Counted from the stretch's first letter, positions 4,281-44,229 are shown. The stretch is 64,000 nucleotides of DNA from Thermoplasmata archaeon (GCA_027315455.1 DAHUXZ010000009.1:2714-66713), one strand, 5' to 3'. Notes: generated from the letters alone by a model not told the origin. Made by a program: numbers and translations.

Positions 4281-5486
4281 ATGAGCGAACCGGAAGCGCC
4301 ACCGGCCGGCCGAGACGCGTTCGAGCGGGTGAACTTCCTCGAGCTCAGGAACAACCAGCTCGCCGAGTCGATCAAGCGGGTCGAGAGCGAGCGCCACTAC
4401 ATGGAGGCCGAGATCCTCCGCCTTCAGCGCGAGGTCAAGCGGCTCAAGACCGAGCTCGACCGCCTGCGCTATCCCCCCCTCATCGTCGGAAGCGTCCGGG
4501 ACGTCCTCACCGACGGCCGGGTCGTCGTGAAGTCCTCGACGGGGCCGGACTTCGTCGTGAACGCCGCCGAGACCGTCGAGCACGACAAGATCACCGTCGG
4601 CTCGCGCGTCGCGCTCAACAAGCAGACCCTCGCCGTGATGGGCGTCCTGCCCGCGTCGCTCGACCCGCTCGTCGCCGCGAGCGAGATCGTCGACAAGCCG
4701 AACGTCACCTACGCGGAGATCGGCGGGCTGACCGAGCAGATCCGCGAGATCCGCGAGGCCGTCGAGTACCCCCTCCTGCGCTCGGAGCTCTACCGCAAGG
4801 TCGGCGTCGAACCGCCGAAGGGCGTCCTCCTCATCGGGTCGCCGGGGACCGGCAAGACGATGGTCGCGAAGGCCGTCGCGCACCACACCCACGCGACCTT
4901 CGTCCGCCTCGTCGGCAGCGAGCTCGTCCAGAAGTACATCGGTGAGGGCGCGCGGCTCGTCCGCGAGCTGTTCCAGCTCGCCCGCGAGAAGGCGCCGACG
5001 ATCATCTTCATCGACGAGGTCGACTCGATCGGGGCAAAGCGCCTCGAGGTGGCGACCAGCGGGGACCGCGAGGTCCAGCGCACCCTGATGCAGCTCCTCG
5101 CCGAGATGGACGGGTTCGAGCCGCTCTCGAACGTCAAGATCATCGCGGCGACCAACCGGCCGGACATCCTGGACGACGCGCTCCTGCGTCCCGGGCGCTT
5201 CGACCGGATCATCGAGGTCCCGGTCCCGACCTTCACGGGTCGGGCGGAGATCTTCAAGATCCACTCGAAGGGCATGGCGCTCAAGGAGGCGATCGACTTC
5301 GAGGCGCTCGCGGGCCGTTGCGAGGGCGCGACCGGCGCCGACATCAAGGCGATCTGCACCGAGGCCGGGATGTGGGCGATCCGCGAGGAGCGCGATCAGG
5401 TGACCAGCGCGGACTTCGACCGGGCGATCGAAAAGGTCGTCGGGGAGGAGGAGCTGCGCAAGGAATCGGTCACGATGTTCGCCTAG
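4281..5486 (+). CDS. pan: Proteasome-activating nucleotidase
   Basis: N-terminal coiled coil, PPLIVG OB domain, GSPGTGKT, IIFIDEVD, SGDREVQRTLMQLLAEMDGF, C-terminal MFA (HbYX-like). Confidence 0.97.
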   Translation: MSEPEAPPAGRDAFERVNFLELRNNQLAESIKRVESERHYMEAEILRLQREVKRLKTELDRLRYPPLIVGSVRDVLTDGRVVVKSSTGPDFVVNAAETVEHDKITVGSRVALNKQTLAVMGVLPASLDPLVAASEIVDKPNVTYAEIGGLTEQIREIREAVEYPLLRSELYRKVGVEPPKGVLLIGSPGTGKTMVAKAVAHHTHATFVRLVGSELVQKYIGEGARLVRELFQLAREKAPTIIFIDEVDSIGAKRLEVATSGDREVQRTLMQLLAEMDGFEPLSNVKIIAATNRPDILDDALLRPGRFDRIIEVPVPTFTGRAEIFKIHSKGMALKEAIDFEALAGRCEGATGADIKAICTEAGMWAIREERDQVTSADFDRAIEKVVGEEELRKESVTMFA

Positions 5487-5493
5487 GGCCGCC

Positions 5494-5730
5494 TCACGCG
5501 ACCCCGGCCGCGGAGAACATCTCGATCCGCCCGCACGCCGGGCACCACGCGAGCTCGACCAGCAGCGCGCCGTCAGAGATCCCCTCGCCCCCCGCCGTGC
5601 GTAGCCGCTGGCGGCCGAGCGGCGTGAGGGCGCCGTCGCAGCCGGCGCACCGACGGACGGCCCGGCGCGCGACGAGGTCACCGGGCTCGGGGACCCGTGG
5701 GGCGGGCGGCAGCGTCACGACCCACCGCAA
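5494..5730 (-). CDS. Small zinc-ribbon protein
   Basis: CAGCDG...WCPACGRIEMF. Confidence 0.65.
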   Translation of the reverse strand: MRWVVTLPPAPRVPEPGDLVARRAVRRCAGCDGALTPLGRQRLRTAGGEGISDGALLVELAWCPACGRIEMFSAAGVA

Positions 5731-5750
5731 CGGGGTCGTCCCTCAAAAGG

Positions 5751-6695
5751 TCAGACGGTCGCGGCAAGCGTGAGGCGCGCCGCGATGCGGGGGCCCCCCG
5801 GGGGCGTCAGGTCCGCGAGCAGCGCCGCGTCGCCGGGCTCGAAGACAACGGGACGGTCGGCCTCGAGCTCGAAGGCGTCCGCATCGAAGCGGCGGACCTC
5901 GACCGGTACGAACTGCAACCCGATGAGGGCGTGGAGGTGGGCCCCCGCCCGGAGCGAGCCGCGGAAGTAGCGGCAGAGCGCGCGGTCGCGGCCGACCAGC
6001 CGCTCGGAGACGGTGAGCGAGCCGGGCGGCGCGAGGACCTGGCCGCGGCCGAGCTCGTCGGCGTCGGCCCCCTTGAGGGCGACCCCGACGCGCGAGCCGG
6101 TCCCGGCCTCCCGGACCTCGATGTCGTGGACCTGGATCGACCGGGCCTCGACCTCCCTCTCGGTGGGGAAGAGGCGCAGCCGGTCGTGCGCGCGCAGGGT
6201 GCCCCGGCGCACGACGCCGAGGGCGACGGCGCCGACGCCCTTCACGGGAAAGGCGTGGTCGATCGGGACGCGGACCGGCCCGTCGCGTGGCGGGGCCGTC
6301 CACCCCTCGACCTCGGCCCGCAGGGACAGAAGGTCGAGCGGGGCCATCGCCAGCGTCTCGAGGCGGGTCCCCCGGAACGCCCGGCGAACCTCCTCCTCCC
6401 CGACCCCGGGCCCGAGGCGGATCGTCGTCGGGACCGCCACGAGGTCGAGGACCGCGGCCATCTCGGCGACCTCGCGCGAGAGCCCCGGCACGACCAGGAG
6501 GACGTGGTCGGCCATGGCGATGGCGTAGAGGAGCGGGGGGAGCTTCTCGGGGAACTGGGTCGGCTCGACCAGCGTGAGGGCGTGGTCGTCCCGCACGGCG
6601 TTGTAGAGGGTGAGGTCGCTCGAGGTCCCCTTCTTCGCGAGCTCCTTCGCGAGGTCGGCGGCCCCCAGGACCGCCACGGTCACCGCTCCGCCCAT
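5751..6695 (-). CDS. SelB-like/EF-Tu domain II-III protein with degenerate G domain
   Basis: KKGTSSDLTLYN, IDHAFPVKGVGAVALG, RSIQVHD, GSRVGVALKG..ADELGRG. No GxxxxGK[ST] P-loop. Confidence 0.85.
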   Translation of the reverse strand: MGGAVTVAVLGAADLAKELAKKGTSSDLTLYNAVRDDHALTLVEPTQFPEKLPPLLYAIAMADHVLLVVPGLSREVAEMAAVLDLVAVPTTIRLGPGVGEEEVRRAFRGTRLETLAMAPLDLLSLRAEVEGWTAPPRDGPVRVPIDHAFPVKGVGAVALGVVRRGTLRAHDRLRLFPTEREVEARSIQVHDIEVREAGTGSRVGVALKGADADELGRGQVLAPPGSLTVSERLVGRDRALCRYFRGSLRAGAHLHALIGLQFVPVEVRRFDADAFELEADRPVVFEPGDAALLADLTPPGGPRIAARLTLAATV

Positions 6696-6702
6696 CCCTT
6701 CC

Positions 6703-9315
6703 TCACCGGGCCGTTACCATCGGCGCCTCGGGCGTGACGGCGAGCTCGATGTGATCGCCCCGGACCTCGACGCGGACCGACGCGCCGTCGCGCACCTCCC
6801 CGGCGAGGATGCGGACGGTCAGCGGGTCGACGACGAGGCGCTGGACGGTCCGCCGAAGGGGCCGCGCCCCGAACTGCGGGTCGAACCCTTCCTCGGCGAG
6901 GCGCTCGCGCGCCTCCGGCGTGATCGTCACCTGGATGCGGCGGTCGCGCAGGCGCCCCTGGACCTGGCGGATCTGGAGATCGACGATCTGCTCGATCTCG
7001 GCCTTCCCGAGGGTGTGGAAGACGACGATGTCGTCGAGCCGGTTGAGGAACTCCGGTCGGAAGTACGAGCGCAGCGCCCCGTCGATCACCGAGCGGCGCT
7101 CCTCGTCGGTCTTCGCCGACGCGAGGAGGTCGGTACCGAGGTTGCTGGTCATGATCACGAGGGTGTTGCGGAAGTCGACGGTCCGGCCCTGGCCGTCGGT
7201 AAGGCGGCCTTCGTCGAGAAGCTGGAGGAGGACGTTGACGACGTCCGGGTGCGACTTCTCCACCTCATCGAAAAGGATGACGGTGTACGGATGGGTCCGG
7301 ACCGCCTCGGTGAGCTGGCCCCCCTCCTCGTACCCGACGTAGCCCGGCGGCGCCCCGATGAGGCGCGCGACGGTGTGCTTTTCCATGTACTCGCTCATGT
7401 CGAGGCGCACGAGCGCCTTCTCGCTGTGGAAGAGGAAGCCCGCGAGCGCCTTCGCGAGCTCGGTCTTCCCGACGCCCGTCGGGCCGACGAAGAGGAACGC
7501 GCCCATCGGCCGGTTCGGGTCGGCGAGACCGCTGCGCGAGCGGCGGACGGCGCGGGCCACGGCCTCGACGGCCTCGTCCTGCCCGATGACCCGCTCCTTG
7601 AGCTCGTCCTCCATCCGGAGCAGGCGCTGGGTCTCGCCCTCGAGCATGCGGCTGACGGGGACGCCGCTCCACTTCCCGATCACCTCGGCGATGTCGTCCT
7701 CGCCGACCTCCTCGCGCAGGAGGGTCCCCTCGGGGCTCTCGGCGGCGAGGGATTGGGTCTTCTCGGCGATCTGCTTCTGCAGCTCGGGGATCGCCCCGTA
7801 GCGGAGCCGCGCCGCCCCCTCGAGGTCGCCGGAGCGCTCGGCCTCCTCTTCCTGGCCCTTCGTCTGCTCGAGCCGCTTCCGCAGCTCGCGCACCTCCTCG
7901 ATGCGGTCCTTCTCCCGCTTCCATCGGGCGAGGAGCGCCCCCTCGCGCTCCTTGAGGTTGGCCACCTCCTTGTCCAGCTTGCGGAGGCGGTCGGCCGAGG
8001 CGGGGTCGGTCTCGCGCTTGAGCGCCGCGCGCTCGATCTCGAGCTGGCGGAGCCGGCGCGAGAGCTGGTCGAGCTCGGGCGGGCGGGAGTCGAGGGCGAG
8101 GCGGACCATCGAGGCCGCCTCGTCGACGGCGTCGATCGCCTTGTCCGGAAGGTGGCGGTCGGTGATGTAGCGGGACGAAAGGGTCGCGGCGGCCACGAGC
8201 GCCGCATCGTGGATGCGGACCCCATGGTGGATCTCGTAGCGCTCGCGGAGGCCGCGCAGGATCGAGATCGTGTCCTCGACGGACGGCTCGGTCACGTAGA
8301 CGGGCTGGAACCGCCGCTCGAGCGCGGCGTCCTTCTCGATGTACTTGCGGTACTCCTGGATCGTCGTCGCCCCGATCGCATGGAGGCTGCCGCGGGCGAG
8401 CGCCGGCTTGAGCAGGTTCGAGGCGTCCATCGCGCCGCCTTCGGTCGACCCGGCGTGGACAAGGGTGTGGAGCTCGTCGATGAACAGGACGATGCCGCCC
8501 TCCGACCGTTCGATCTCCTTGAGGACGGCCTTGATCCGCTCCTCGAACTCGCCGCGGAACTTCGCGCCGGCGAGCAGCGCCCCGAGGTCGAGGGCGAAGA
8601 CCTTCCGGTTGCGGAGCGAGTCCGGCACGTCCCCGGCGGTGATGCGGAGCGCGAGGCCCTCGGCGATCGCGGTCTTCCCGACGCCCGGGTCCCCGACGAG
8701 CACCGGGTTGTTCTTCGTGCGGCGGGAGAGGATCTGGATCACGCGCCGGATCTCGTCGTCCCGGCCGATCACCGGGTCGAGCTTGCGCTCCCGGGCGAGC
8801 GCCGTGAGGTCCCGGGCGTAGCGCTCGAGCGCGCGGTACTCCTGCTCCTCCTGGCGGCTCTCGACCCGGCGGCCCGCGCCCCGGACCGACTCGAGCGCGG
8901 CCTCGACGGCGGCCCGACGGACGTCGACCTCCTCGAGGAGCTCCTTGGCCTTCGACTTCGCGCTCAGGAGCCCGAGGAAGAGCTCCTCGACGCTCGTGTA
9001 GCGGTCCTTTCGCTTCTGCGCCTCGGCCTCGGCGGACTCGATGACGGCCGCCAGCGGGCGGGAGACGTACTGGTCCGTCGGGGCGACGTGGTCGGCCGTC
9101 GGCAGGCGGGCGAGGTGCTCCTCGAGGAGCCCTTCGAGCTTGGGGAGGGGGACCGAGAGGGCCTTGAGGACCTGGACCGTCGGGCCGTCGGGGTCCGAGA
9201 GAAGGGCCGCGAGCAGGTGCTCCGGCTCGACGGAGGCGTGGCGGAGCTCGGCCGCACGGGAGAACCCCTTCTCGAGCGCCGTGCGGGCCGCATCGGTCAG
9301 TCGGTCCAGCCGCAT
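6703..9315 (-). CDS. clpB: Chaperone ClpB (Hsp100)
   Basis: Clp N domain, [21 protein letters not shown], coiled-coil middle domain, [22 protein letters not shown]. Start taken at MRLDRLT (9315); 9327 is an alternative. Confidence 0.95.
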
Positions 9316-30400: not shown

Positions 30401-30851
30401 ACGCGGCGAGGGCGACGCCCGTGACCGTGACGGGGTTGGCCGTCGGGTTCGTCAGGGCCGACGAGCTCTCCCAGTAGTACTGGGGGTTCGGGTTCTGGGG
30501 GATGACGGCGCAGGGGTTGCAGCCGTAGAGGTGGGCGTGGGCTTGGGGAGGGACCCAGACGCCCCACCAGCCGGGGGCGAGGCCGCCCGCGGTGTTGGCG
30601 GCGGTGAAGCTGAACTGGCCGCTCAGCGAGGCCGTCGTGGTAGCGGAGACCTGGTGGGTCGCGGACGAGATCAGGTTCACGGTGACCCCCGCAGGAACCG
30701 GCGGCGGCGACCCGCCGCCTGCCTGGTCGACGTACCCCAGTAGGGTATAGGTCGGTCCGGCCGCTCGCGCCCCCGGCACCGAGGCCAGCGAACCCGCCAG
30801 CACCAGCACGACGAGGGCCCACAACGCGGCTCGCGGTAGCCCGTTAACCAT
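27459..30851 (-). CDS. Large cell-surface glycoprotein with Ig-like/PKD domains and C-terminal membrane anchor
   Basis: Signal peptide, Thr/Ser/Asn-rich beta repeats, YQWAWGDG PKD motif, many NxS/T sequons, C-terminal TM followed by RRR. Confidence 0.85.
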   Translation of the reverse strand: MVNGLPRAALWALVVLVLAGSLASVPGARAAGPTYTLLGYVDQAGGGSPPPVPAGVTVNLISSATHQVSATTTASLSGQFSFTAANTAGGLAPGWWGVWVPPQAHAHLYGCNPCAVIPQNPNPQYYWESSSALTNPTANPVTVTGVALAAYNATIWGNVTYNGQPQGGALVELLQPTISGFVYANNTTVAKATNTTVVGEFSLSVPYGTWVLETIVPGNPNHYSLLQVTVNSAKQTVNPVVANYMVWGWVNQVANPSAHIPAGGNVTVVDTSTSYIYSAPTPAGGYYSFGAYPAGFTGTGARTFEVVLAPVGWQTVSYPVTISAASPNGSGPNPHIVLSRPQVPPAQYLTTLNFSSGFGKVAVATQATLGNDSVFPDLTNASVGQLWAQLALDWQHNLAFDAANLTHVLGWINASGPFFAAGQSNLAVAAAGGAVGFGQPTNYTFTNTTTCTATCGLTSSASLDLYWAQAYNVTGSLAASAKNYTVSFNFRHPTNGQVFNYTVVLPSGYVLAAGNPVPAQSRLAPAGPGGTWTSFTLVSLPSASPSSTATFSVVRYANVTAIVNVTTSNFAFSKANVLNQTRGHYEVIIGSGENATFSALNSTFPAGTNGTLYQWAWGDGTFTNTSSPTTYHTYTGAQSYAGSLTVTSSGGRTSATAFTVYTDNVPPTAQISTNATVLSSGSVSYVWVNWSRTLHFNASLSSDTVYSGAPVHGILSIASWNITSAGGYQTTANYTASSGVTNPSQRNLTLTFLGAGDYYTNGTLPFPFAATFYGWEYNVSLKVWDGAGHLASATLVVLVNDTEKPTPVLAIQDSAGRTISSSGIIEGSNGTADVVLVATNSTDPHNGSIASYFWNITNPVNRSANRTISQPAVQPGFKLPAKPQLWLAPQSKPYTVNLTVTDRAGNTAYTTSQLTVSINTSQRPVLSVSNLTTPTTMTEGTSYTVWVNVTNTIGKNSTAEALAVRFYLLSPGGGGSQIGIGGTVSYYNYSSSGVVATSPWAGVVNLPYNHTVRAQISFNPGRTGTWDLWANATATNEFVGDYTAGANQAHVQVTLNPNPTSQYIIYGAVGGAAVVLILLAVFFYRRRGMGGTPSSKAKPSSSSTGKASSSSTGKAGLERSSKKDEEDDEE
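27508..27555 (-). repeat. 24-bp tandem duplication in the cytoplasmic tail (SSSSTGKA x2)
   Basis: GCCTTCCCGGTGCTCGAGCTCGAC twice. Confidence 0.85.
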
Positions 30852-33270: not shown

Positions 33271-34071
33271 TCAGAGGGTGCGCTGGCCCGGCTCGCGCGC
33301 GGCGGCCGTGAGGTCGGCCGGGGGGACCCCGAGGACCTCCTGGAGGAGCTCGGCCGTCCCGGGCCCGAAGCCCATGAAGTGGTTGTTGACGAGGAGGAAC
33401 GCGTCGCGCGCGGCCGCGCCCTCGTGCTCGAGGTGGGTCCGCATCGCTTCCATCGCCGGACGGCCTTCCCGCTGGATGCCATCGAAGCGGGTCAGGGCCC
33501 GGTCGCCGACGAAGCGGCCGTAGAGGAAATCCCCGGGGACCCAGTACGGCGGCGCGAGCCCCGGGTAGACCGTCCAGACGAGCGCCGCGCTCCGCCGCTC
33601 GAGGAGGGCGCGCGTCGCGGGGACCCACCACGATCGGTGGCGCAGCTCGACGGCGAGCGCAAGGTCCGCCGGGAACGCCGCGAGGATCTCCTCGAGGCGC
33701 CCCGCGTCCTTCTCCCGACGGAACGACGCGGCGAACTGCGCCACGACCGGCCCGAGCTTTCCGGCCTCGCGCAGCGGGCGCAGCGCCTCGACGAACGGAC
33801 CCACCGATTCCGCGAGCGGCGGGCCGACCGGCGCGTGCGTGATCGCCTTCGGGACCTTGAGGGCGAAGAGGAAGCCCGACGGGGTCAGGGCGGCCCAGCG
33901 TCGGACCAGGAAGGGGCTGGGCGACCGGTAGAACGACGAATCGACCTCCACGAGGTCGAAGACCCGCGCGTACCGGCGGAGGTACTCCCCCGGTGGCGTC
34001 CCCTCCGGGTAGAAGACGCCGCGCCAGTCGTCGTAGGACCAGCCGGTGCACCCGACGCGGACGTGCGGCAT
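33271..34071 (-). CDS. DUF72 family protein
   Basis: VGCTGWSYDDWRGVFYP, VEVDSSFY, FALKVP..ITH, ELRHRSW, NNHF.G. Confidence 0.92.
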   Translation of the reverse strand: MPHVRVGCTGWSYDDWRGVFYPEGTPPGEYLRRYARVFDLVEVDSSFYRSPSPFLVRRWAALTPSGFLFALKVPKAITHAPVGPPLAESVGPFVEALRPLREAGKLGPVVAQFAASFRREKDAGRLEEILAAFPADLALAVELRHRSWWVPATRALLERRSAALVWTVYPGLAPPYWVPGDFLYGRFVGDRALTRFDGIQREGRPAMEAMRTHLEHEGAAARDAFLLVNNHFMGFGPGTAELLQEVLGVPPADLTAAAREPGQRTL

Positions 34072-34163
34072 GCCGACCCCCACCCGGACGCGGCGGATTG
34101 AGGGTTTCGGCGGCCCGGGAACCCCACGGAAGACAGATAATCCTCCGTTCGCTCGATGGGACG

Positions 34164-35084
34164 ATGGCCCCCGTCACCTCGACGACCTCTGTGCTGCGAC
34201 GCCTGTTCGAGGCCGCGGGCTACCGGCTCGAGGACCGGCCGAGCGGCCTCAAGGCGATCCGCAGCCGGGACCACCGCGCCGTTCTCGTGGTATGGGGCCT
34301 GCCGTCCCCCGTGGAGGTAGAGTCCGAGTTCCCCGGGGATGCCGTGCACCGAACGCTCGTCTACGCCGAGGACCCGGGCACCGTCGCCCGGTCGATCGCC
34401 TCCGAGCGGAGCATCGAGGTCCTGGGCCCGGCGACCCTCGGCCCGGCCCTCGGCGAGCTCCTCCTCCCCCCGCCCCCGGCGCCCGGGGAGAGCGAGACGG
34501 AGTCCGAGGAGAGCCCTCTCGAGCCGCCGGCGACCCTCTTTCCGGAAGGCGAGCGGGTCGTGCGGCCCCGGCTCGGGCAAGCGGAGGCCGAGGCGCTCGC
34601 CGGTATCGACCAGGCCCACTACGCCCTGCGCCTCGTCCCGTTCTACGTGACCCCCTATCGGGTCCGCGTCCGGGGCGCCCACGGCGGCCCGGGCCCGACC
34701 TCGGACCACCTGATCGCGGTCAACGCGATCTCCGGCCGCGCCGAGGTCTGGGACCCCGGCGACCGGGAGATCGCGAGCGAGCTCGACGTCCCGACGCAGA
34801 AGGTCGATGCGTCGCTGAGCGAGGGGGACAGCCGGCAGATCGCCGAGGAGGCGGTCCGCAAGCGCCACACGGTGAGCGTCGACCACTCCGAGCAGCACGG
34901 CGGGGCGCTCGTCATCGAGCGTCGCCGCCTGCCCCCCGGTCCCGACGACCTCCGGCTCGGGCCGACGGTCCTCCTCTACGTGCCGTACTGGTACGTCGAA
35001 GGGCTGCAGGGTCGCGTCGTCCTGGACTCCGTGACGGGGACCCGCACGCTTCCGGACGACCCGGAGATCGACGCGGTTCGCTGA
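34164..35084 (+). CDS. Hypothetical protein, possible degenerate restriction-endonuclease-like N-terminal domain
   Basis: Good codon usage. LFEAAGY... and A.ERSIEVL....L...LGE resemble an Mrr-like fold; internal duplication VPFY..VNAISG / VPYW..LDSVTG. Confidence 0.65.
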   Translation: MAPVTSTTSVLRRLFEAAGYRLEDRPSGLKAIRSRDHRAVLVVWGLPSPVEVESEFPGDAVHRTLVYAEDPGTVARSIASERSIEVLGPATLGPALGELLLPPPPAPGESETESEESPLEPPATLFPEGERVVRPRLGQAEAEALAGIDQAHYALRLVPFYVTPYRVRVRGAHGGPGPTSDHLIAVNAISGRAEVWDPGDREIASELDVPTQKVDASLSEGDSRQIAEEAVRKRHTVSVDHSEQHGGALVIERRRLPPGPDDLRLGPTVLLYVPYWYVEGLQGRVVLDSVTGTRTLPDDPEIDAVR

Positions 35085-36352: not shown

Positions 36353-36457
36353 GCAGGCGTAATCTAGCGGTAGGATGTCAGCCTTCCAAGCTGACTACCC
36401 GGGTTCGAATCGCCGACGCGCCCGCGGGCGCGCGGCGCGGACGTCCCGGCGCCTGCA
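36353..36457 (+). tRNA. tRNA-Gly(TCC) with a 34-nt intron at position 59/60 (36410..36443)
   Basis: Acceptor GCAGGCG/CGCCTGC+A; anticodon arm TCAGC-CTTCCAA-GCTGA; T stem CCGGG/CCCGG with the TTCGAA^T loop interrupted by a BHB-bounded insert. CCA not encoded. Confidence 0.92.
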
Positions 36458-36488: not shown

Positions 36489-36512
36489 GCCGCGCTCGCT
36501 GCTCCGTACGCT

Positions 36513-36596
36513 GCTGAGGTAGCCTAGCCCGGCAAGGCGCCAGCCTTGAAAGCTGGTGGCGGCAACGCCCCGGGAGTTCAAATCTCCCCCTCAGCG
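36513..36596 (+). tRNA. tRNA-Ser(TGA)
   Basis: Acceptor GCTGAGG/CCTCAGC+G; anticodon arm CCAGC-CTTGAAA-GCTGG; long variable arm GGCG-GCAA-CGCC; T arm GGGAG-TTCAAAT-CTCCC. Confidence 0.96.
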
Positions 36597-36658
36597 TCCC
36601 TCCCGTCGCTCGCCCCCGCCGAACGATTATATCCCGCGGCTCGCTCGCTCGTCCTCCG

Positions 36659-39272
36659 ATGCCCGAGCCCGTGGTCGTGACTCCCCTCATGGAGCAGTAC
36701 GAGGGGGTCAAGGCCCGCTATCCGGGACATCTCGTCCTGTTCCGGGTCGGGGACTTCTACGAAACGTTCGGGGACGACGCGAAGCTGCTCTCCCGGGAGG
36801 TCGAGGTCGTCCTGACCGCCCGGGCCGCGGACGGCCGCGGCGAGCGGATGCCGATGGCCGGCGTCCCCCACCATGCCGTGGACACCTACCTGGGACGGCT
36901 CGTGAGGAAGGGGTTCAAGGTCGCGATCTGCGACCAGGTCGAGGACCCGAAGGCCGCGCGCGGGCTCGTGCGGCGCGAGGTGACGCGCGTCGTCACCCCC
37001 GGAACCGTCGTCGAGGACCGTATCCTGCCCGGGCCCGAGCACAACTTCCTCGCGAGCGTCGTCCTCCCGGCGGAGGGGCCTCCCGCCGTCGCCGCCGTCG
37101 ACATCACCACGGGGGAGTGGTTCCACGGGCTCGCCCCGACGTCGGGAGCGGACGGGGTCCTGCAAGGGCTCGTCCCGTTCGCGCCGAGCGAGGTGCTCCT
37201 CGCGCTTCCGCCCGACCCGTCGCGCCGGCGGGAGGTCGAGTCCGCCCTCCGCCGGGAGTTCCCGAGGGCCCGTCTCGAATCCGCGCCGCCGGCCGCGGCC
37301 GAGCTTCCCCCCTCGCTCGCGGCCGAGGCGACGGAGCCGCTCGTCGGCGAGGCGGACCGACGCCTGGCGGCGTACGTCGGCCAGACCCAGCCGCGCCTGC
37401 TCCCCTACCTGGAGGTCGTGCCGATCACCGCGGGGCGACGGCGGATGCACGTCGACGCGAAGACCCTGCGCCATCTCGAGATCGCGCGGCCGATGAACCC
37501 CGACGACCCGTCCGGCCCGACCCTCCTGTCGGTGTGGGACGCGACCGTGACCGCACCGGGACGGCGGACGATCGGGTTCTGGCTGCGGAACCCGCTCGCC
37601 GACGCCGCCGCGATCCGGGAGCGCCTCGACGCCGTCGACGCGCTGCGGGCGCGGGGGGCCGCCCTCCTCGAGCTGCGGGAGCGGCTCGGGCCCGTCGCCG
37701 ACCTCTCGCGGATCGCCTCCCGGGTCGTCGGCCGGCTCGTGCGCCCGCCCGAGCTCGCGGCGCTGCGGTCGAGCCTCCACGCCATGGCGGCCGTCGCCGA
37801 GGCCCTCGGGGAGGCCCCGACGGGTCTCCTCGGCGGAGGCCCTCGCCGGCCGGCTCGACCCGCTGCCCCGCCTTTGCGAGCGGCTCGCCACCGCCCTCCC
37901 CGAGGAGCCCCCTCCCACCGCCGACCACGGCGGGCTCTTCCGGGCGGGCTTCTCCCCGGCGCTCGACGCCCTTGTCGCGGAGGAGCAGGGGGGTCTTGCC
38001 GAGCTCGAGGCGCTCGAGCGCCGTGAGCAGGAGGCGAGCGGGATACGCACGCTCAAGGTCGGGTACAACCAGGTCTTCGGCTACTACTTCGAGATCACGC
38101 GGCCGAACCTGGGCCGGGTCCCCGCGCACTTCCGGCGGAAGCAGACCCTCTCGGGCGGGGAGCGGTTCACGACGGAGGAGCTCGCGCGGATCGAGGAGCG
38201 GGTCCTCGCCGCCCGCGCCGCGCTCGGCTCCGCGGGGGCGGAGGCGTGGGAAGGGTTGCTGGCCGAGATCGACCCGTGGGTGCCCGCGCTCCACCGGCTC
38301 TCCCGGGCCGTCGGGGAGCTCGACACCCTCGCCGCGTTCGCCCTGCTCGCCCAGGAGCGGAACCTCGTCCGGCCCGAGGTCGACGAGGGCACGGCGCTCG
38401 TCATCCGGGATGGACGCCACCCCGTCCTCGACCGCACCCTCGGCCGTCGCTTCGTGCCGAACGACACCGACCTCGATGCCGACGGTGACCGCCTCCTGGT
38501 CCTCACCGGGCCGAACATGTCCGGCAAGTCGACCTACATGCGGCAGGTCGGCCTCCTCGTCCTCCTCGCCCAGGCCGGCTCGTTCGTGCCGGCGCGGTTC
38601 GCCCGGGTCGGGGTCGCCGACGCGGTGTTCACGCGGATGGGGTTCACCGACGAGATCGGCCGCGGGAAGTCGAGCTTCATGGTCGAGATGAGCGAGGTCG
38701 CCGAGATCCTCCGCTCGGCCGGCCCCCGGTCGCTCGTCCTCCTGGACGAGGTCGGGCGGGGCACGAGCACGTTCGACGGCCTCGCGATCGCGTGGTCGGT
38801 CCTCCGCCATCTCTGCGAAACCGTCCGATGCCGGACCCTCCTCGCCACGCACTACCACCAGCTCACCGAGCTCGTCGAGCCCCTCGCCGGCGCCCGGAAC
38901 GCCCACCTCGCCGTCGATGAATCGGGCGGCGAGATCGCGTTCCTCCACCGGCTCGTCCCCGGGAGCACGGACCGCAGCTACGGCCTCCACGTCGCGCGGC
39001 TCGCCGGCCTTCCCCCGGCGCTGCTCTCCGAAGCCGACCGGCTCCTGGGCCGCCTCGAGTCCGAGGGGGTCCGGCTCGCCCCGGGCCGCCGGCGCGGCGC
39101 GCCGACGCGCTACACGCAGGGGATCCTGCTTCCCGCCCCGTCGGCCGGCCCCTCTCCTTTCGAGTCCGCCCTCCTCGCGCTCGACCCCGACCGGATGGCC
39201 CCGATCGACGCGCTCGCCTTCCTGGCCGAGTGGCGCCGGCGGCTCGGCGAGGGAGCGCCGCCCCCGCCGTGA
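36659..39272 (+). pseudogene. mutS: DNA mismatch repair protein MutS (MutS1), frameshifted near 37832 (real or assembly error)
   Basis: TPLMEQY, GDFYETF, AICDQ in the first frame. After ...CTC CTC G GCG GAG the next frame gives AEALAGRLDPLPRL..., LKVGYNQVFGYY, TGPNMSGKSTY, SSFMVEM, DEVGRGTST, SYGLHVA. Confidence 0.9.
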
Positions 39273-41044
39273 GCGCGCCGTCGGCCCCGCGGGCGATCCG
39301 CCGCCTCGACGAGGGCACGGTCCAGCGGATCGCGGCGGGCGAGGTCGTCGAGCGCCCCGCGTCCGTCGTCAAGGAGCTCGTCGAGAACGCCGTGGACGCC
39401 GGGGCGCGCGACGTCCGCGTGCGGCTCGAGGGCGGCGGGCTCGAGCTCATCGCCGTGGAGGACGACGGGGCCGGGATCGCCGGGGGGGACCTCCCGCTCG
39501 CCGTCGAGCGCCACGCGACCAGCAAGCTCGAGCGGGTCGAGGACCTCGCGGCGATCGCGACGCTCGGCTTCCGGGGCGAGGCGCTCGCGTCCATCGCGGC
39601 GGTCTCGCGCCTGCGCCTTCTCTCGCGGGTCGCGGGCGCGCCCGCGGCGAGCGGCATCTCCGTGGTCGCCGGCCAGGTCGTCGGCACGTTCGTCGAGGGC
39701 CGCGCCCCCGGCACGACGGTCGAGGTGCGCGACCTCTTCTTCAACACGCCGGCGCGGCGGAAGTTCCTCCACGCGCCCGCCGCCGAGCAGCTCGAGGTCC
39801 TCGCGATGGTCGAGCGGCTCTACCTCGCGCGGCCGGCCGTCGGGCTGGCCGTCGACAACGAGCGGGGGGAGCTCGCCCGCTACCCCCCCGTCCGCTCGCT
39901 GCGCGAGGCCGCCGGCCGCGTCTTCGGCCCGGAGTTCCTCGGCCAGTCGTTCGCCGTCGCGGCCCGGCCGGCGGAGGGGATCGCAATCCAGGCCGTCCTC
40001 GCCCGGCCCGCGATCAGCCGATCGACCTCGAGCTCGCTCTTTCTCGCGCTCAACGGCCGCGCCATCGCCTCGCGTCCCCTCGCCCAGGCGGTCCGGATCG
40101 CCTACGCTGACCACCTCCCCCGGACCCGCCACCCGGTCGGCGCCATCCACCTCGAGGTCGACCCGTCCCGGGTCGACGTGAACGTCCACCCGACGAAGCG
40201 CGAGGTCCGCATCGCCCACGAGCGCGACCTCGCCGACGAGCTGCGCCGGGCCGTGCGGGAGGCGCTCCTCGGGACGCCGCAGGTCGCCGACCGGGCCGGA
40301 GCGGTCGGGAGACCGACCGGATTCCTTCCCCCCGCCCCGTCCTCCCCCGTCGGGCCTCTCCCGCCGCTCGCGGCGCTCCCGCGCGCGGCCGAGGAGTCGC
40401 CCCACGCCGTCCAGCGGACCCTGGGCGAGCCGCCGGCCCCGGTGACCGTGGCCGCGACGGCCCGGCGGCCGCGCCTCGCGTTCGTCGGCCAATTGTTCCG
40501 CGTGTACTGGGCCGCCGAGAGCGGCGAGGACCTCCTCCTGGTCGACCAGCACGCGGCGAGCGAGCGGGCGATCTTCACCGCGCTGCGCCGGGACGGCCGG
40601 CTCGCCCACCAGGAGCTCGTCGACCCCCTGCGGTTCGAGCTCACCCCCCGCCAGGCGCTGACGCTCTCGACCCACGGCGAAGCGATCGCGCGTTCGGGCT
40701 TCCGCGCTGCGCCGTTCGGCGGGAACGTCGTCCGCATCGAGGCGGTACCCTCCTACCGGGGGCGGCGCGCCCGCGCCGAGGCGTTCCCCGGCCTCCTCGA
40801 CGAGCTCGCCGTCGGCGGGCGGCCGACGGTCCCCGACGGCCTCGCCGAGCGCACCGACGCGACGCTCGCCTGCCACAGCGCGGTGCGCGCGGGAGACCTC
40901 CTCTTAGCCGAGGAGCTCGCGCGGATCGTCGAGGCGCTCGACGCCGACCCCGAGGGGGCGTACACCTGCCCCCACGGGCGCCCGATCCTGGTCCGGATCC
41001 CGCGGGCGCGAATCGACCGCTGGTTCCTGCGGAGCGGGCCGTGA
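39269..41044 (+). CDS. mutL: DNA mismatch repair protein MutL
   Basis: IAAGEVVERPASVVKELVEN, HATSK, GFRGEAL, DVNVHPTK, DQHAASER, ACH, CPHGRP. GTG overlaps the mutS stop. Confidence 0.95.
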   Translation: MSAPSAPRAIRRLDEGTVQRIAAGEVVERPASVVKELVENAVDAGARDVRVRLEGGGLELIAVEDDGAGIAGGDLPLAVERHATSKLERVEDLAAIATLGFRGEALASIAAVSRLRLLSRVAGAPAASGISVVAGQVVGTFVEGRAPGTTVEVRDLFFNTPARRKFLHAPAAEQLEVLAMVERLYLARPAVGLAVDNERGELARYPPVRSLREAAGRVFGPEFLGQSFAVAARPAEGIAIQAVLARPAISRSTSSSLFLALNGRAIASRPLAQAVRIAYADHLPRTRHPVGAIHLEVDPSRVDVNVHPTKREVRIAHERDLADELRRAVREALLGTPQVADRAGAVGRPTGFLPPAPSSPVGPLPPLAALPRAAEESPHAVQRTLGEPPAPVTVAATARRPRLAFVGQLFRVYWAAESGEDLLLVDQHAASERAIFTALRRDGRLAHQELVDPLRFELTPRQALTLSTHGEAIARSGFRAAPFGGNVVRIEAVPSYRGRRARAEAFPGLLDELAVGGRPTVPDGLAERTDATLACHSAVRAGDLLLAEELARIVEALDADPEGAYTCPHGRPILVRIPRARIDRWFLRSGP

Positions 41045-41562
41045 GAGAGTCCGACCTCATCGCCCCGGTCGAGGCCCATCTGGCCCGCCGGGGCTACCGC
41101 GTCTGGGCCGCGCCGGACGGCGCCGACTACTTCGACATCGTGGCGCGGCGGGGCCCCGAGATCGGCCTGGTCGAGCTCAAGCTCTCCGACTGGCGCAAGG
41201 TCTTCGCGCAGGCCGTCCGCCGCCGGGCCTGGGCCGACTGGGTCGCCGTCGCCCTGCCCCGGGAGTCGCTCGCCCGGCGGCTGTTGGACCGCCCCGAGGC
41301 GCCCCGCGCCCAGCGCGTGGGCGTCTGGGTCGTCGAGGACGGCGCGGTCCGCGAGCTGCGGCCGGCGCGTCCCCTCGTCGCCGCGGGAGAGGCCGACCCC
41401 TTCGCGGAGAGCCGGGCGCGCTTGGCGGCCCGGCTCGACGAGCTCGAGGCCGGGGCGCTGCCGGCCGGGGCGCGGTGGCTCGTCCCCGGACGCCCGTCGG
41501 TGGGCGGGTCGCGGCGGACGACGCGCGACTGGCGCCTCGAGGAGTTCCCCGACGGGAGCTAG
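41041..41562 (+). CDS. Putative PD-(D/E)xK nuclease (DUF2161/MmcB-like)
   Basis: RESDL..PV..HL...GY.V...FDIVARR...LVELK......AQAVRR...D.V.VALP. GTGA overlap with mutL. Confidence 0.7.
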   Translation: MRESDLIAPVEAHLARRGYRVWAAPDGADYFDIVARRGPEIGLVELKLSDWRKVFAQAVRRRAWADWVAVALPRESLARRLLDRPEAPRAQRVGVWVVEDGAVRELRPARPLVAAGEADPFAESRARLAARLDELEAGALPAGARWLVPGRPSVGGSRRTTRDWRLEEFPDGS

Positions 41563-42710
41563 CCCAGGGTCGGGGCGATCGCCTTCTCGAACCGGTCGGC
41601 CATCCGATCGAAGCTGAACCCGTCGGCGTAGCGCTTGCCGGCCTCCCCGATCGACCGCCGAAGGGCGGGGTCGGCGAACAGCTCGGCGAGCTCGCTCGCG
41701 TAGGCCCCGGCGTCGTCGGACGGCACGACGCGGACGGCGGTCTTGGGGTCGATCCCGTCCAGGGGCAGGTGCGCGCTCACCACGGCGGGGACCCCGTAGC
41801 GCATCGCCTCACGGGGGGCGAGGCCGAAGCCCTCGTAGCGCGTCGGGAAGAGGAAGACATCGGCGGCGCGGAGGACGCGGGCCTTCATCGGCTCGTCGAC
41901 GGGCCCGAGCGAAAGGACCCCCGGCTCCGTCGGGACCGAGGAGCCGGCGACGATGCACCGCGCGCCGGGGAACAGCACCCGGATCCGTCGGAACGCGTCG
42001 AGCGCGATCGGGAGGCCCTGGCGCTCCGGGGTCCGTCCGAGGAACGCGACCACCGGGACGTCGAGCGGGATGCGGAGGGCGCGGCGGGCGTCCTCGCGCG
42101 TCCCGACCTCGAGCGGGTCCGGGACCCCGAGAGGGAGGAGCGTCACGCGGGCGGCCGGGACCCGGTAGTAGCGCTCGAGGAGCTGGCGGTTGAGCTCGGA
42201 GCCGGCGAAGACGACGCGGGCCCGGTCGAGGGCGTGGCCCTCGAGGCGGAGGAGCGCGCGGCGGTCGACCCAGTTGCCGAGGCGCTGGCGGACCCCGCGT
42301 CCCGGCTCGAGGGGGCGCAGGGTGTCGAACGTGTGGAGGGCGACGTCGTGGACGAACATCGCGAAGACCGGGCGGCCCGCGCGCCCCGCGCCGAGGGCGC
42401 CGATCGCCCCGGCCTTCTCGTCGTTGCCCACGACGAGGTCGGCGTTCGGGTCGAACAGGCCCGTCGCGTTGCGTCCGATCGCGATGTCGCGGGCGAACGG
42501 CCGGCGGCCGGCGCCCCGGAACGGGACCGGCACCGCCTCGACGCCGGGCACGGGGGTCAGGGCGGCGCCGGCCTCGGCCGGGTAGAGGACACGCACCCGG
42601 TGGCCCAGGGTCCCGAGCGACGCGGCGAGCTGCCAGACGACCCGCGACAGCCCGCTGGACGTCTCCTCGACGGGCGCCGTCGCGAGGAACTCGATCCGCC
42701 AGGCGGCCAT
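41559..42710 (-). CDS. Glycosyltransferase family 4
   Basis: LGHRVRVL, FLGR....QG, ADVFLFPTRYEGFGLAPREAM..GVP. Confidence 0.9.
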   Translation of the reverse strand: MAAWRIEFLATAPVEETSSGLSRVVWQLAASLGTLGHRVRVLYPAEAGAALTPVPGVEAVPVPFRGAGRRPFARDIAIGRNATGLFDPNADLVVGNDEKAGAIGALGAGRAGRPVFAMFVHDVALHTFDTLRPLEPGRGVRQRLGNWVDRRALLRLEGHALDRARVVFAGSELNRQLLERYYRVPAARVTLLPLGVPDPLEVGTREDARRALRIPLDVPVVAFLGRTPERQGLPIALDAFRRIRVLFPGARCIVAGSSVPTEPGVLSLGPVDEPMKARVLRAADVFLFPTRYEGFGLAPREAMRYGVPAVVSAHLPLDGIDPKTAVRVVPSDDAGAYASELAELFADPALRRSIGEAGKRYADGFSFDRMADRFEKAIAPTLG

Positions 42711-42720
42711 GGGCGGCGCG

Positions 42721-44229
42721 CTAGCCCTCCACGGTGCCGAAGCGGTCCGCGAAGGAGCGGCCGGCCATCGCCTCGGGGATCGGCGCACCCATCGCGCTCA
42801 GGATCGTCGGGGCGAGGTCGAGGAGGGAGAACGGTTCGCTCCGCCGCTCCGGCTGGATCCCGACCCCGCTCGCGATGAGGATGCCGTCCATGCGGTGGAC
42901 CCCGGTTCCGTAGAAGTAGCCCGGTCGGTCCTTGAGCATCGGGCGGGGGTAGCTGAAGTCCATCCGCGGCTCCGTCGCGAGCCCATCGATCCGCAACAGG
43001 AGCGCGGGGGCGTTCTCGAGCCGGTCCCCGCGGTAGAGCTCCGCGGGGCTCAGGACCTCGATCCGGGCCCCGGGGAACGTCTCGAGGCGGCGGCGGATCT
43101 CGTCGAGCGCGGCCCGGGCGGCCTCCGGGCGCAGCGAGGAGTTGTAGCGGTTGAGGTAGATCCCCTCGGGAACGGGGTAGGAGTAGGCGACGGTCCGCTC
43201 CCAGTCGATGCGGGGGGCCACGGCCTCGAACGTCGCGACCCCGCCGACGGCCGTCGAGAGCGCCTCGATGCGGGGGCTCGAGCGCAGCCGGTCGGCGAGC
43301 GGTCGCAACAGCCGTCGGCCCCCGGGGATACGGTCGAGGGTGACGAGGAGCCGCGAGAGCAGGTCCCGCCGGCGGTCGATCCCGCCGTTGCGGAAGCGCA
43401 GGAACCCCTCCGCCTCGAGCCAGCGGTTGGTGAAGAAGTCCGACCGGGCGTCCCCGTGGCCGTGGTCGGAGATGATGAGCGTGGCGACGGGGGACACCGC
43501 GGCGCGGAACGCCGCGTCGATCCGCGCGAGGGCGCGGTCGACCTCCCGCCAGAACCCGCGCAGGTCCTCCCCGACCTTCGGGGGCGGGCCGGTGAGCTCG
43601 CTCCAATGCTGGTGCTGGATCCGGTCGGTCTCGCGGAAGAGGACGAAGAGGAAGTCCGGGTGGTGGGCGCGGATGAGCGCCTCCGTCGCCCGGGCGCGCT
43701 GCCCCACGGCGCGGGTCGCGAGCGCCATCCACTCGGCCCGGTGGGCCTCCCGGTAGGGCGGGAGCTCGGGGATGAGCGGCTCGCCGAGGGCGCGCTCGAC
43801 CTCGTCGCGCAAGCCCTCGGGGTAGGTCGGCGGCCGGTCCGAGAGCATCCCCGGCAGGACGAAGCCGTTGAGCGCGTGGCCGGCGCGCATCGGGAAGTTG
43901 ACGACGCCGACCGAGTGGCCGAGCCGGCTCAGCCGGTCCCAGATCGCCTCCGAGGGACGGTACGTCTGGACGAGCCGGCTCTTCCCCGGCCCCCCGTCCG
44001 GCTCGGTGAAGCCGAAGATCCCGAGGGCCCCGGGGTCGAGCCCGGTCGCGAAGGAGTACCAGGCGGGGATCGTCTTCGGCGGGTAGACCGAGGCGAGGGG
44101 CGCGCGCAGCCCCGCGGCGGCGGTCCGGGCAAGGAACGGCAGCTCGCCGGAGGCCATCAGCGGGTCGAGGAGGTCGAAGGTGGCCCCATCGAGGCCCAGT
44201 ACAAGGAACCGCCGGGACACCGAACTCAT
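42721..44229 (-). CDS. Alkaline-phosphatase-superfamily protein (nucleotide pyrophosphatase/phosphodiesterase-like)
   Basis: LGLDGAT, SVYPPKTIPAW (Thr nucleophile), DRIQH, ISDHG, G.HRMDG, DLAPTIL. Confidence 0.88.
   Translation of the reverse strand: MSSVSRRFLVLGLDGATFDLLDPLMASGELPFLARTAAAGLRAPLASVYPPKTIPAWYSFATGLDPGALGIFGFTEPDGGPGKSRLVQTYRPSEAIWDRLSRLGHSVGVVNFPMRAGHALNGFVLPGMLSDRPPTYPEGLRDEVERALGEPLIPELPPYREAHRAEWMALATRAVGQRARATEALIRAHHPDFLFVLFRETDRIQHQHWSELTGPPPKVGEDLRGFWREVDRALARIDAAFRAAVSPVATLIISDHGHGDARSDFFTNRWLEAEGFLRFRNGGIDRRRDLLSRLLVTLDRIPGGRRLLRPLADRLRSSPRIEALSTAVGGVATFEAVAPRIDWERTVAYSYPVPEGIYLNRYNSSLRPEAARAALDEIRRRLETFPGARIEVLSPAELYRGDRLENAPALLLRIDGLATEPRMDFSYPRPMLKDRPGYFYGTGVHRMDGILIASGVGIQPERRSEPFSLLDLAPTILSAMGAPIPEAMAGRSFADRFGTVEG

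Follow-up and report, generated by a model that had tools for sequence, protein, structure and literature searches.

What does a nuclease gene do when it stands as the last gene behind an archaeal mutL? The question is raised by a 64,000-nucleotide stretch of DNA from a Thermoplasmata archaeon (GCA_027315455.1, DAHUXZ010000009.1:2714-66713; hereafter the window), in which mutS (36659-39272), mutL (39269-41044) and a third open reading frame of 173 residues, here called ORF3 (41041-41562), follow one another on the same strand. To our knowledge, the mechanism of bacterial-type MutS-MutL repair in archaea is poorly understood, including the nuclease that removes the error strand after MutL has nicked it. 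In one study, Halobacterium that had lost MutS and MutL reportedly showed no mutator phenotype (PMC2816208). An initial annotation of the window, made from the sequence alone, proposed a three-component archaeal mismatch-repair variant in which ORF3 serves as a MutH- or Vsr-like nicking partner, needed because the endonuclease of MutL is impaired. The analysis described here points to a different role. Our preferred reading, to which we give an even chance, is that ORF3 is a dispensable, lineage-specific accessory nuclease that is co-expressed with MutL and probably tethered to PCNA, rather than a MutH-like substitute.

ORF3 proves to be a real gene, kept under purifying selection. Its 114 homologues (E 4e-91 to 3e-28) are all unnamed or labeled "hypothetical". 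The initial annotation recognized in it a glutamate, a D-x12-ELK motif and a downstream glutamine, and these are present as E3, D32-x12-E45-L-K47 and Q57. In an alignment of 37 homologues, the invariant residues are G18, D26, D32, G42, L43, E45, K47, Q57, A58, R61, R62, D66 and W67; the catalytic positions D32, E45, K47 and Q57 are thus constant among orthologues. The AlphaFold2 (AF2) model of ORF3 (predicted local distance difference test, pLDDT, 84.9; predicted template modeling score, pTM, 0.81) has an alpha-beta-beta-beta-alpha-beta core, formed by helix 4-16, strands 20-23, 33-37 and 40-46, helix 51-64 and strand 67-72. Beyond the core come a beta-hairpin at 94-107, a helix at 122-136 and a tail modeled with low confidence. 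The core fold, the catalytic D...(D/E)-x-K residues and the acidic residue of helix 1 that mark the PD-(D/E)xK enzymes are all found, and the modeled fold together with the conserved catalytic residues bears out the assignment first made for this frame. ORF3 is therefore predicted to be a small nuclease of an unnamed family with an intact PD-(D/E)xK active site.

Comparisons of structure and of sequence place ORF3 among known nucleases in different ways. The top structural matches of the model are nearly all PD-(D/E)xK enzymes. The best solved match is 3dnx (Z 11.5, root-mean-square deviation 3.3 over 126 residues, model residues 1-144; Foldseek E 2.7e-5), followed by PaqCI (Z 9.7), AF2093 (7.4), AF1548 (7.0), NucS (6.6) and Hjc (4.8). 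No Pfam family scored above its cut-off for ORF3 in a search to E 10, NCBIfam returned nothing meaningful, and a search of PDB sequences with the ORF3 profile gave nothing below E 0.18. The sub-threshold Pfam match to VpsR (E 7e-4; 19.7 bits, cut-off 23.7) and the response-regulator matches of the ORF3 profile to PDB sequences (E 0.18-0.47) are considered noise, because the fold of the model is that of a PD-(D/E)xK enzyme. A match to the UPF0102 structure 3fov (E 0.32) aligns its D..E.K residues with those of ORF3 and is taken as a hint only.

The closest known relatives in fold differ from ORF3 in sequence, domain content or context. Five of 37 distant relatives scanned carry DUF2161 (PF09929), and roughly the first 100-130 residues of these proteins align to the ORF3 nuclease domain; the Pfam DUF2161 model describes the C-terminal half of those relatives, which is absent from ORF3, and ORF3 has no DUF2161 match. 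Hjc shares the ORF3 core (Foldseek and VIA matches, Z 4.1-4.8), and Pyrococcus Hjc presumably has the same D-x12-E-x-K spacing. ORF3 differs from Hjc in its additional hairpin, helix and tail, and the source genome (94% complete), which has one ORF3 and one MutS, encodes Hjc as a separate gene (G000:C8:18454-18714). NucS/EndoMS is an archaeal PD-(D/E)xK nuclease that acts on mismatches, is reported to interact with PCNA, and has a nuclease domain that superposes on ORF3 (2vld, Z 6.6). It is a two-domain protein (PF01939 plus an N-terminal domain), whereas ORF3 is a single domain of 173 residues without a match to PF01939 or NucS_C; NucS_C likewise has no match in the whole 94%-complete genome. 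NucS is reported to be typical of genomes without MutS and MutL (PMC5290159).

The nearest fold, 3dnx (SPO1766), belongs to DUF1052 (PF06319) and is MmcB-like (PMC3424549). The match extends over the nuclease core, hairpin and helix of ORF3, and the two proteins have in common a small size, a single PD-(D/E)xK domain and a link to DNA repair. The likeness lies in the fold: ORF3 has no match to PF06319 to E 10 and is 18-20% identical to 3dnx. Unlike MmcB-like proteins, it is archaeal, linked to mutL and provided with a tail resembling a PCNA-interacting peptide (PIP). MmcB-like proteins are described as almost only alphaproteobacterial and as tied to mitomycin C damage or tolerance and translesion synthesis, not to mismatch repair (PMC13705206). 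By these comparisons, ORF3 resembles small repair nucleases of the Hjc, NucS and MmcB kind and falls outside the MutH, NucS, MmcB-like and DUF2161 sequence models. A literature search turned up no description of a nuclease gene located 3' of an archaeal mutL, in line with the remark in the initial annotation that no such partner nuclease was known to be described. The accessible text of the Lutacidiplasmatales paper names only mutLS, and its supplements may list gene content.

ORF3 has a fixed position relative to mutL. Each of the 80 species-level loci with an ORF3 homologue has mutL directly 5' of it, on the same strand. An in-frame start codon overlaps the mutL stop codon by 4 nt at 65 of these loci (GTGA 44, ATGA 19, TTGA 2), and the remainder have short gaps (10 loci) or gaps of 0.9-1.3 kb (5 loci). 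In the window, the GTGA stop/start overlaps that had been annotated at the mutS/mutL (39269-39272) and mutL/ORF3 (41041-41044) junctions are both found. The stop codon of a convergent GT4 glycosyltransferase gene overlaps that of ORF3, which is therefore the last gene of the operon. This arrangement suggests that ORF3 and MutL are co-translated. The main rival of our preferred reading makes ORF3 a nuclease of forks or lesions that acts independently and only shares the transcript, without any mechanistic part in mismatch repair, for example one that processes bulky or cross-linked lesions as MmcB-like proteins may do, or one that cleaves branched DNA at replication forks. We treat it as a tentative but serious possibility. 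It is harder to reconcile with the retention of the 4-nt overlap in 65/80 loci while ORF3 identities fall to about 41-45%, and with a conserved C-terminal extension and tail that belong to the mutL-linked clade and are absent from free-standing relatives.

The distribution of ORF3 was tallied over a sample of 401 genomes from the class, all with a completeness of 80% or more and including three unpublished genomes (G082, G188, G266). Strong ORF3 orthologues are confined to one Thermoplasmata family (f1), which includes Candidatus Lutacidiplasma and comprises uncultured archaea of acid soil and mine drainage. They occur in 61/75 genomes of this family (58/72 without the unpublished three), and all 61 also encode MutL_C; that ORF3 is never found there without MutL is a further point against an independent nuclease. 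MutL_C is present in 11 of the 14 family genomes that lack ORF3, and hence in 72/75 overall. The proposal of consistent linkage to mutL across archaea thus holds in its first part, at 80/80 loci, and fails in its second, since the linkage belongs to one family. For the same reason, and because two genera nested within the family have mutS and mutL without ORF3, the operon does not represent a general archaeal mismatch-repair variant.

These two genera show that the gene can be lost. The 11 family genomes with MutL and without ORF3 include all those of genus g2 (4/4) and genus g7 (5/5). At three g7 loci the synteny is identical, with a glycosyltransferase gene directly 3' of mutL. In a quick IQ-TREE search of MutL, midpoint-rooted, g7 and g2 are placed among lineages that carry ORF3, and families f2 and f3 fall outside (SH-aLRT 99 for the f1 clade, 98 for the inner clade, 100 for g7, 99 for g2). 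This tree requires at least three changes of ORF3, which could be a single gain followed by two losses. ORF3 is considered dispensable because the two nested genera lost it yet kept mutS-mutL.

The MutL encoded with ORF3 provides the evidence on whether a substitute nickase would be needed. The endonuclease consensus of MutL proteins is DQHA(x)2E(x)4E, and the aspartate, histidine and central glutamate of this motif are present in the window. In 42 aligned sequences, D426, H428, A429 and E432 are invariant, as are A534, C535 and H536, residues C567-P572, and Q448 and L450 of QELVDP, a motif that we take to be of the clamp-binding type after the Bacillus subtilis MutL literature. The C-terminal WFLR tail, of FxR form, is also present, and ACH, CPHGRP and WFLR are invariant or nearly so. 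By its motifs, mutL is a standard endonuclease-type gene whose product is predicted to be nuclease-competent. The initial annotation had correctly read ACH and CPHGRP as kept and the DQHA motif as ending in threonine; the premise of a weakened nuclease is not supported. Over the 80 ORF3-linked loci, the last DQHA position is E in 54, D in 16, A in 5 and S, T or G in one each, with two loci uncovered, so that 70/78 covered loci have an acidic residue there. Because relatives have E or D at this position, the threonine of the window appears to be a local substitution, with no sign of a lineage-wide loss of MutL nuclease. Eight MutLs unaccompanied by ORF3 likewise carry E or D there.

These results bear directly on the idea of a MutH- or Vsr-like partner. 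The analogy was drawn from a PD-(D/E)xK gene joined to the end of mutL, from the terminal threonine of the DQHA motif, and from MutH of the E. coli MutHLS system, a PD-(D/E)xK nuclease acting together with MutS and MutL. The MutL partner of MutH is devoid of endonuclease motifs, unlike the MutL of the ORF3 operon, and mutH is not known to be encoded within the mutS-mutL operon. ORF3 has no Pfam match to MutH (PF02976) or to Vsr at E up to 10, and MutH is outside the 50 best structural matches listed, a result still compatible with a shared fold. The substitute idea is not supported, because the nuclease and clamp-binding motifs of MutL are intact, because sister genera run mutS-mutL without ORF3, and because MutLs without ORF3 have the same E or D at the last position; we give it hardly any credence. 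With these motifs retained in MutL, ORF3 is instead read as an accessory.

Beyond this locus, ORF3 hints at a broader family, as yet unnamed, of small PD-(D/E)xK nucleases with PIP-like tails in archaea and in the mobile elements of archaea. When 1.84 billion representatives were searched with its profile, 650 proteins scored at E<=1e-3 and only 24 at E<=1e-30, the weaker relatives sharing only about 100 N-terminal residues with ORF3. In the wider alignment, E3, D32, E45, K47 and Q57 each reach a conservation of 90% or more. The ORF3 tail motif DWRLEEF, located in a region modeled with low confidence (pLDDT 44-54), is present in 102/136 close relatives, and conservation of W164, R165, L166 and E168 is 90% or higher among the 37 aligned homologues. 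A canonical Qxx[LIMV]xx[FYW] C-terminus occurs in 10/124 more distant relatives, all of them among the 18 nearest (P0142-P0159), whereas shuffled tails average 1.3 such endings and never exceed 5. PIP boxes of the nearest outgroup relatives (P0138-P0159) include QAVLEEF, QKLLEEF, QLSLEIF and QSTLSLF; DWRLEEF aligns with QAVLEEF and QKLLEEF at the same terminal position and with the same L-x-x-F spacing. FEN1 of the source genome ends in QTLIEAFGGDAP.

Two contexts of distant relatives are recorded here. At L093 (about 5420-7980) and L100 (about 450-2780), both of family f27, a free-standing ORF3 relative lies between the gene for phosphoglycerate kinase (PGK) and one whose product carries an ATPase domain of the DnaA type, a bacterial domain that is odd for an archaeon; the L093 protein also carries DUF835. 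At L104 (3942-6951), a metagenome contig of 73.6 kb has a PIP-box-bearing relative directly 3' of the gene for an MCM helicase. Pfam matches are nearly absent from the other open reading frames of this contig, which may derive from an archaeal virus or integrated element. L104 is the only locus from the metagenome scan and is treated as a lead, not a pattern.

The L104 contig, with its many Pfam-less frames, is one reason to ask whether ORF3 is a domesticated or still selfish nuclease of a mobile element, located at the 3' end of the operon and without a repair role. The patchy spread of homologues across the class would fit such an origin, and so would a lead from the ESM Atlas, where homologue P0093 led only to "hypothetical" Thermoplasmatota clusters and, with a score of 0.89 and as a lead only, to a DUF2161-bearing cluster labeled 62% viral. 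Against it stand the single fixed position of ORF3 in 80/80 loci and a vertical inheritance that mirrors that of MutL. No immunity, methylase or integrase partner gene lies nearby, and two scans of viral contigs, made with two groups of PIP-bearing relatives, gave no confirmed locus. We judge a purely mobile-element nuclease very unlikely.

On our preferred reading, ORF3 would have been acquired at the base of one Thermoplasmata family and would have settled, coupled by translation, as the final gene of a mutS-mutL operon that is canonical in other respects. The nuclease would be made together with MutL. Its DWRLEEF tail, as a derived PIP-like peptide, would tether it to PCNA-loaded DNA where MutL nicks, and there it would cleave a repair intermediate, such as a nicked, flapped or displaced strand. 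A stronger version holds that the three proteins form one mismatch-repair machine, in which the PCNA-tethered nuclease co-translated with MutL performs a second incision or the removal of the error strand. We regard this version as rather unlikely. If it were true, ORF3 would do the step that is given to separate exonucleases or repeated MutL nicking in bacteria and eukaryotes, and an endonuclease-proficient MutL would for the first time have a nuclease partner dedicated to it. A complex prediction of ORF3 with full-length MutL scored 0.00 in two runs without controls and weighs neither way.

Several observations weigh against a functional tie of ORF3 to MutL and PCNA. The order orf363, MBL, Cgi121, mutS, mutL, ORF3, convergent GT4, phosphodiesterase and aCPSF1 is found in nearly all 80 loci; since the whole neighborhood is syntenic, the adjacency to mutL is partly inherited and is not independent evidence. 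An extra, unrelated gene stands between mutL and ORF3 in 5/80 loci; at the two of these that were read, the inserted gene is GNAT-like (L023 6069-7004) or GT2-like (L024 5863-6873), as judged by eye from the translations. Outside family f1, 43 genomes of seven other families have a weak homologue restricted to the N-terminal part (E 1e-14 to 1e-4) and none of them has MutL_C (0/43), while 114 genomes with MutL_C have no ORF3 homologue at all. The contexts of eight relatives in MutL-less Thermoplasmata were read, and none includes repair genes. As homologues occur in MutL-less genomes, the ancestral function was independent of MutL. The tail of ORF3 contains no glutamine and only one aromatic residue, and the canonical PIP form is found in 0/136 close relatives, so that the likeness is confined to position and L-x-x-F spacing; binding to PCNA is suggested by the position of the tail and by the relatives. 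At L023, the end of the inserted frame overlaps the start of ORF3 by 4 nt.

Much of this would be expected of the independent fork or lesion nuclease described above. Its case is strengthened by the MmcB-like nearest fold, DUF1052 3dnx, as MmcB is linked to mitomycin C tolerance and not to mismatch repair (PMC13705206). It also draws on the varied contexts of the distant homologues, the relative placed directly after an MCM gene, and the two losses of ORF3 with retention of mutS-mutL. If ORF3 does prove a mere passenger, the locus would provide a clean example of conserved synteny mimicking functional linkage. A nuclease gene coupled to mutL across a whole family is a concrete and clonable candidate: the organisms are uncultured, and the proteins are small.

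Table 1. Positions of the genes, motifs and neighboring features of the mutS-mutL-ORF3 locus, counted from the first nucleotide of the window.
Feature	Position	Strand	Basis
Second tRNA-like gene	36357..36419	+	Rfam RF00005, 32.5 bits (gathering score 29), model positions 5-66/71
tRNA-Ser (anticodon TGA)	36512..36599	+	ARAGORN; Rfam 60.4 bits
TATA-like box ATTATAT	36626..36632	+	Sequence; about 27-33 nt ahead of mutS ATG
mutS, 5' part, frame 2	36659..37836	+	Pfam MutS_I E 2e-41, MutS_III E 3e-22
mutS frameshift site, 4-nt surplus	about 37834..37841	+	Alignment with L001; Logan run contigs
mutS, 3' part, frame 0	37837..39272	+	Pfam MutS_V E 4.5e-75, MutS_IV E 7.5e-25
mutL, 591 residues, GTG start on mutS stop (GTGA)	39269..41044	+	NCBIfam TIGR00585 E 4.6e-136; Pfam DNA_mis_repair, MutL_C
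MutL endonuclease motif DQHAASERAIFT, residues 426-437	40544..40579	+	Sequence; alignment
MutL clamp-binding-type motif QELVDP (Q-x-L-x-x-P), residues 448-453	40610..40627	+	Q448, L450 invariant (42 sequences)
MutL metal-site motifs ACH (534-536), CPHGRP (567-572)	40868..40984	+	Sequence; alignment
ORF3, 173 residues, predicted PD-(D/E)xK nuclease, GTG start on mutL stop (GTGA)	41041..41562	+	Homologues; AF2; 3dnx match
ORF3 catalytic hairpin D32 ... E45-L-K47	41134..41181	+	Invariant in 37/37 homologues
ORF3 tail motif DWRLEEF, residues 163-169	41527..41547	+	Candidate PCNA-binding peptide
Convergent GT4 glycosyltransferase	41559..42788	-	Pfam Glycos_transf_1 E 5.5e-19

The layout of the three-gene operon is real, though mutS is not a single open frame as had been annotated. 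The interval 36659-39272 is 2614 nt long, which is no multiple of three, and mutS is broken in the window. Frame 2 encodes MutS domain I and the N-terminal part of domain III up to about 37817, and frame 0 encodes the C-terminal part of domain III with domains IV and V from about 37857. Compared with its closest relative, L001 (ORF3 88% identical), the window has 4 additional nucleotides at about 37834-37841. Both halves of mutS share a frame in 64/67 related loci. Logan contigs from 4/4 runs are without the 4 nt and differ from the window at 37825 and 37828; they are otherwise nearly identical to it and would give an in-frame mutS of 2610 nt. The four runs come from one study that may include the source sample, and they are not independent. 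Because these run contigs and the closest relative are in frame at this site, the frameshift is probably an artefact of assembly (local mis-assembly) or of the strain, and the mutS of the population is probably intact at 2610 nt.

The remaining features concern the upstream region and the neighborhood. The window belongs to a Thermoplasmata-type archaeal genome with a GC content of about 72-77%. The TATA box annotated near 36627 is present (TTATAT, 36627-36632), 27-32 nt 5' of the mutS ATG at 36659. An AT-rich 7-mer (at least 6/7 A/T) precedes mutS in 44/60 related loci, mostly at -34 to -30; the box is therefore not due to chance. Its spacing from the start codon suggests a leaderless or near-leaderless mRNA. 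Two tRNAs had been annotated next to the operon: tRNA-Ser(TGA) was called by both ARAGORN and Rfam, and the second was found by Rfam. ARAGORN made no tRNA call at 36357-36419, and this match may represent an atypical, intron-bearing or truncated tRNA. The 363-residue open reading frame orf363 (33993-35084, + strand) is syntenic 5' of the MBL-Cgi121-mutS block in most related loci, and has no Pfam or NCBIfam match. Farther upstream, at 30691-30774 on the - strand, ARAGORN calls a tRNA-Ser with the unusual anticodon ACT.

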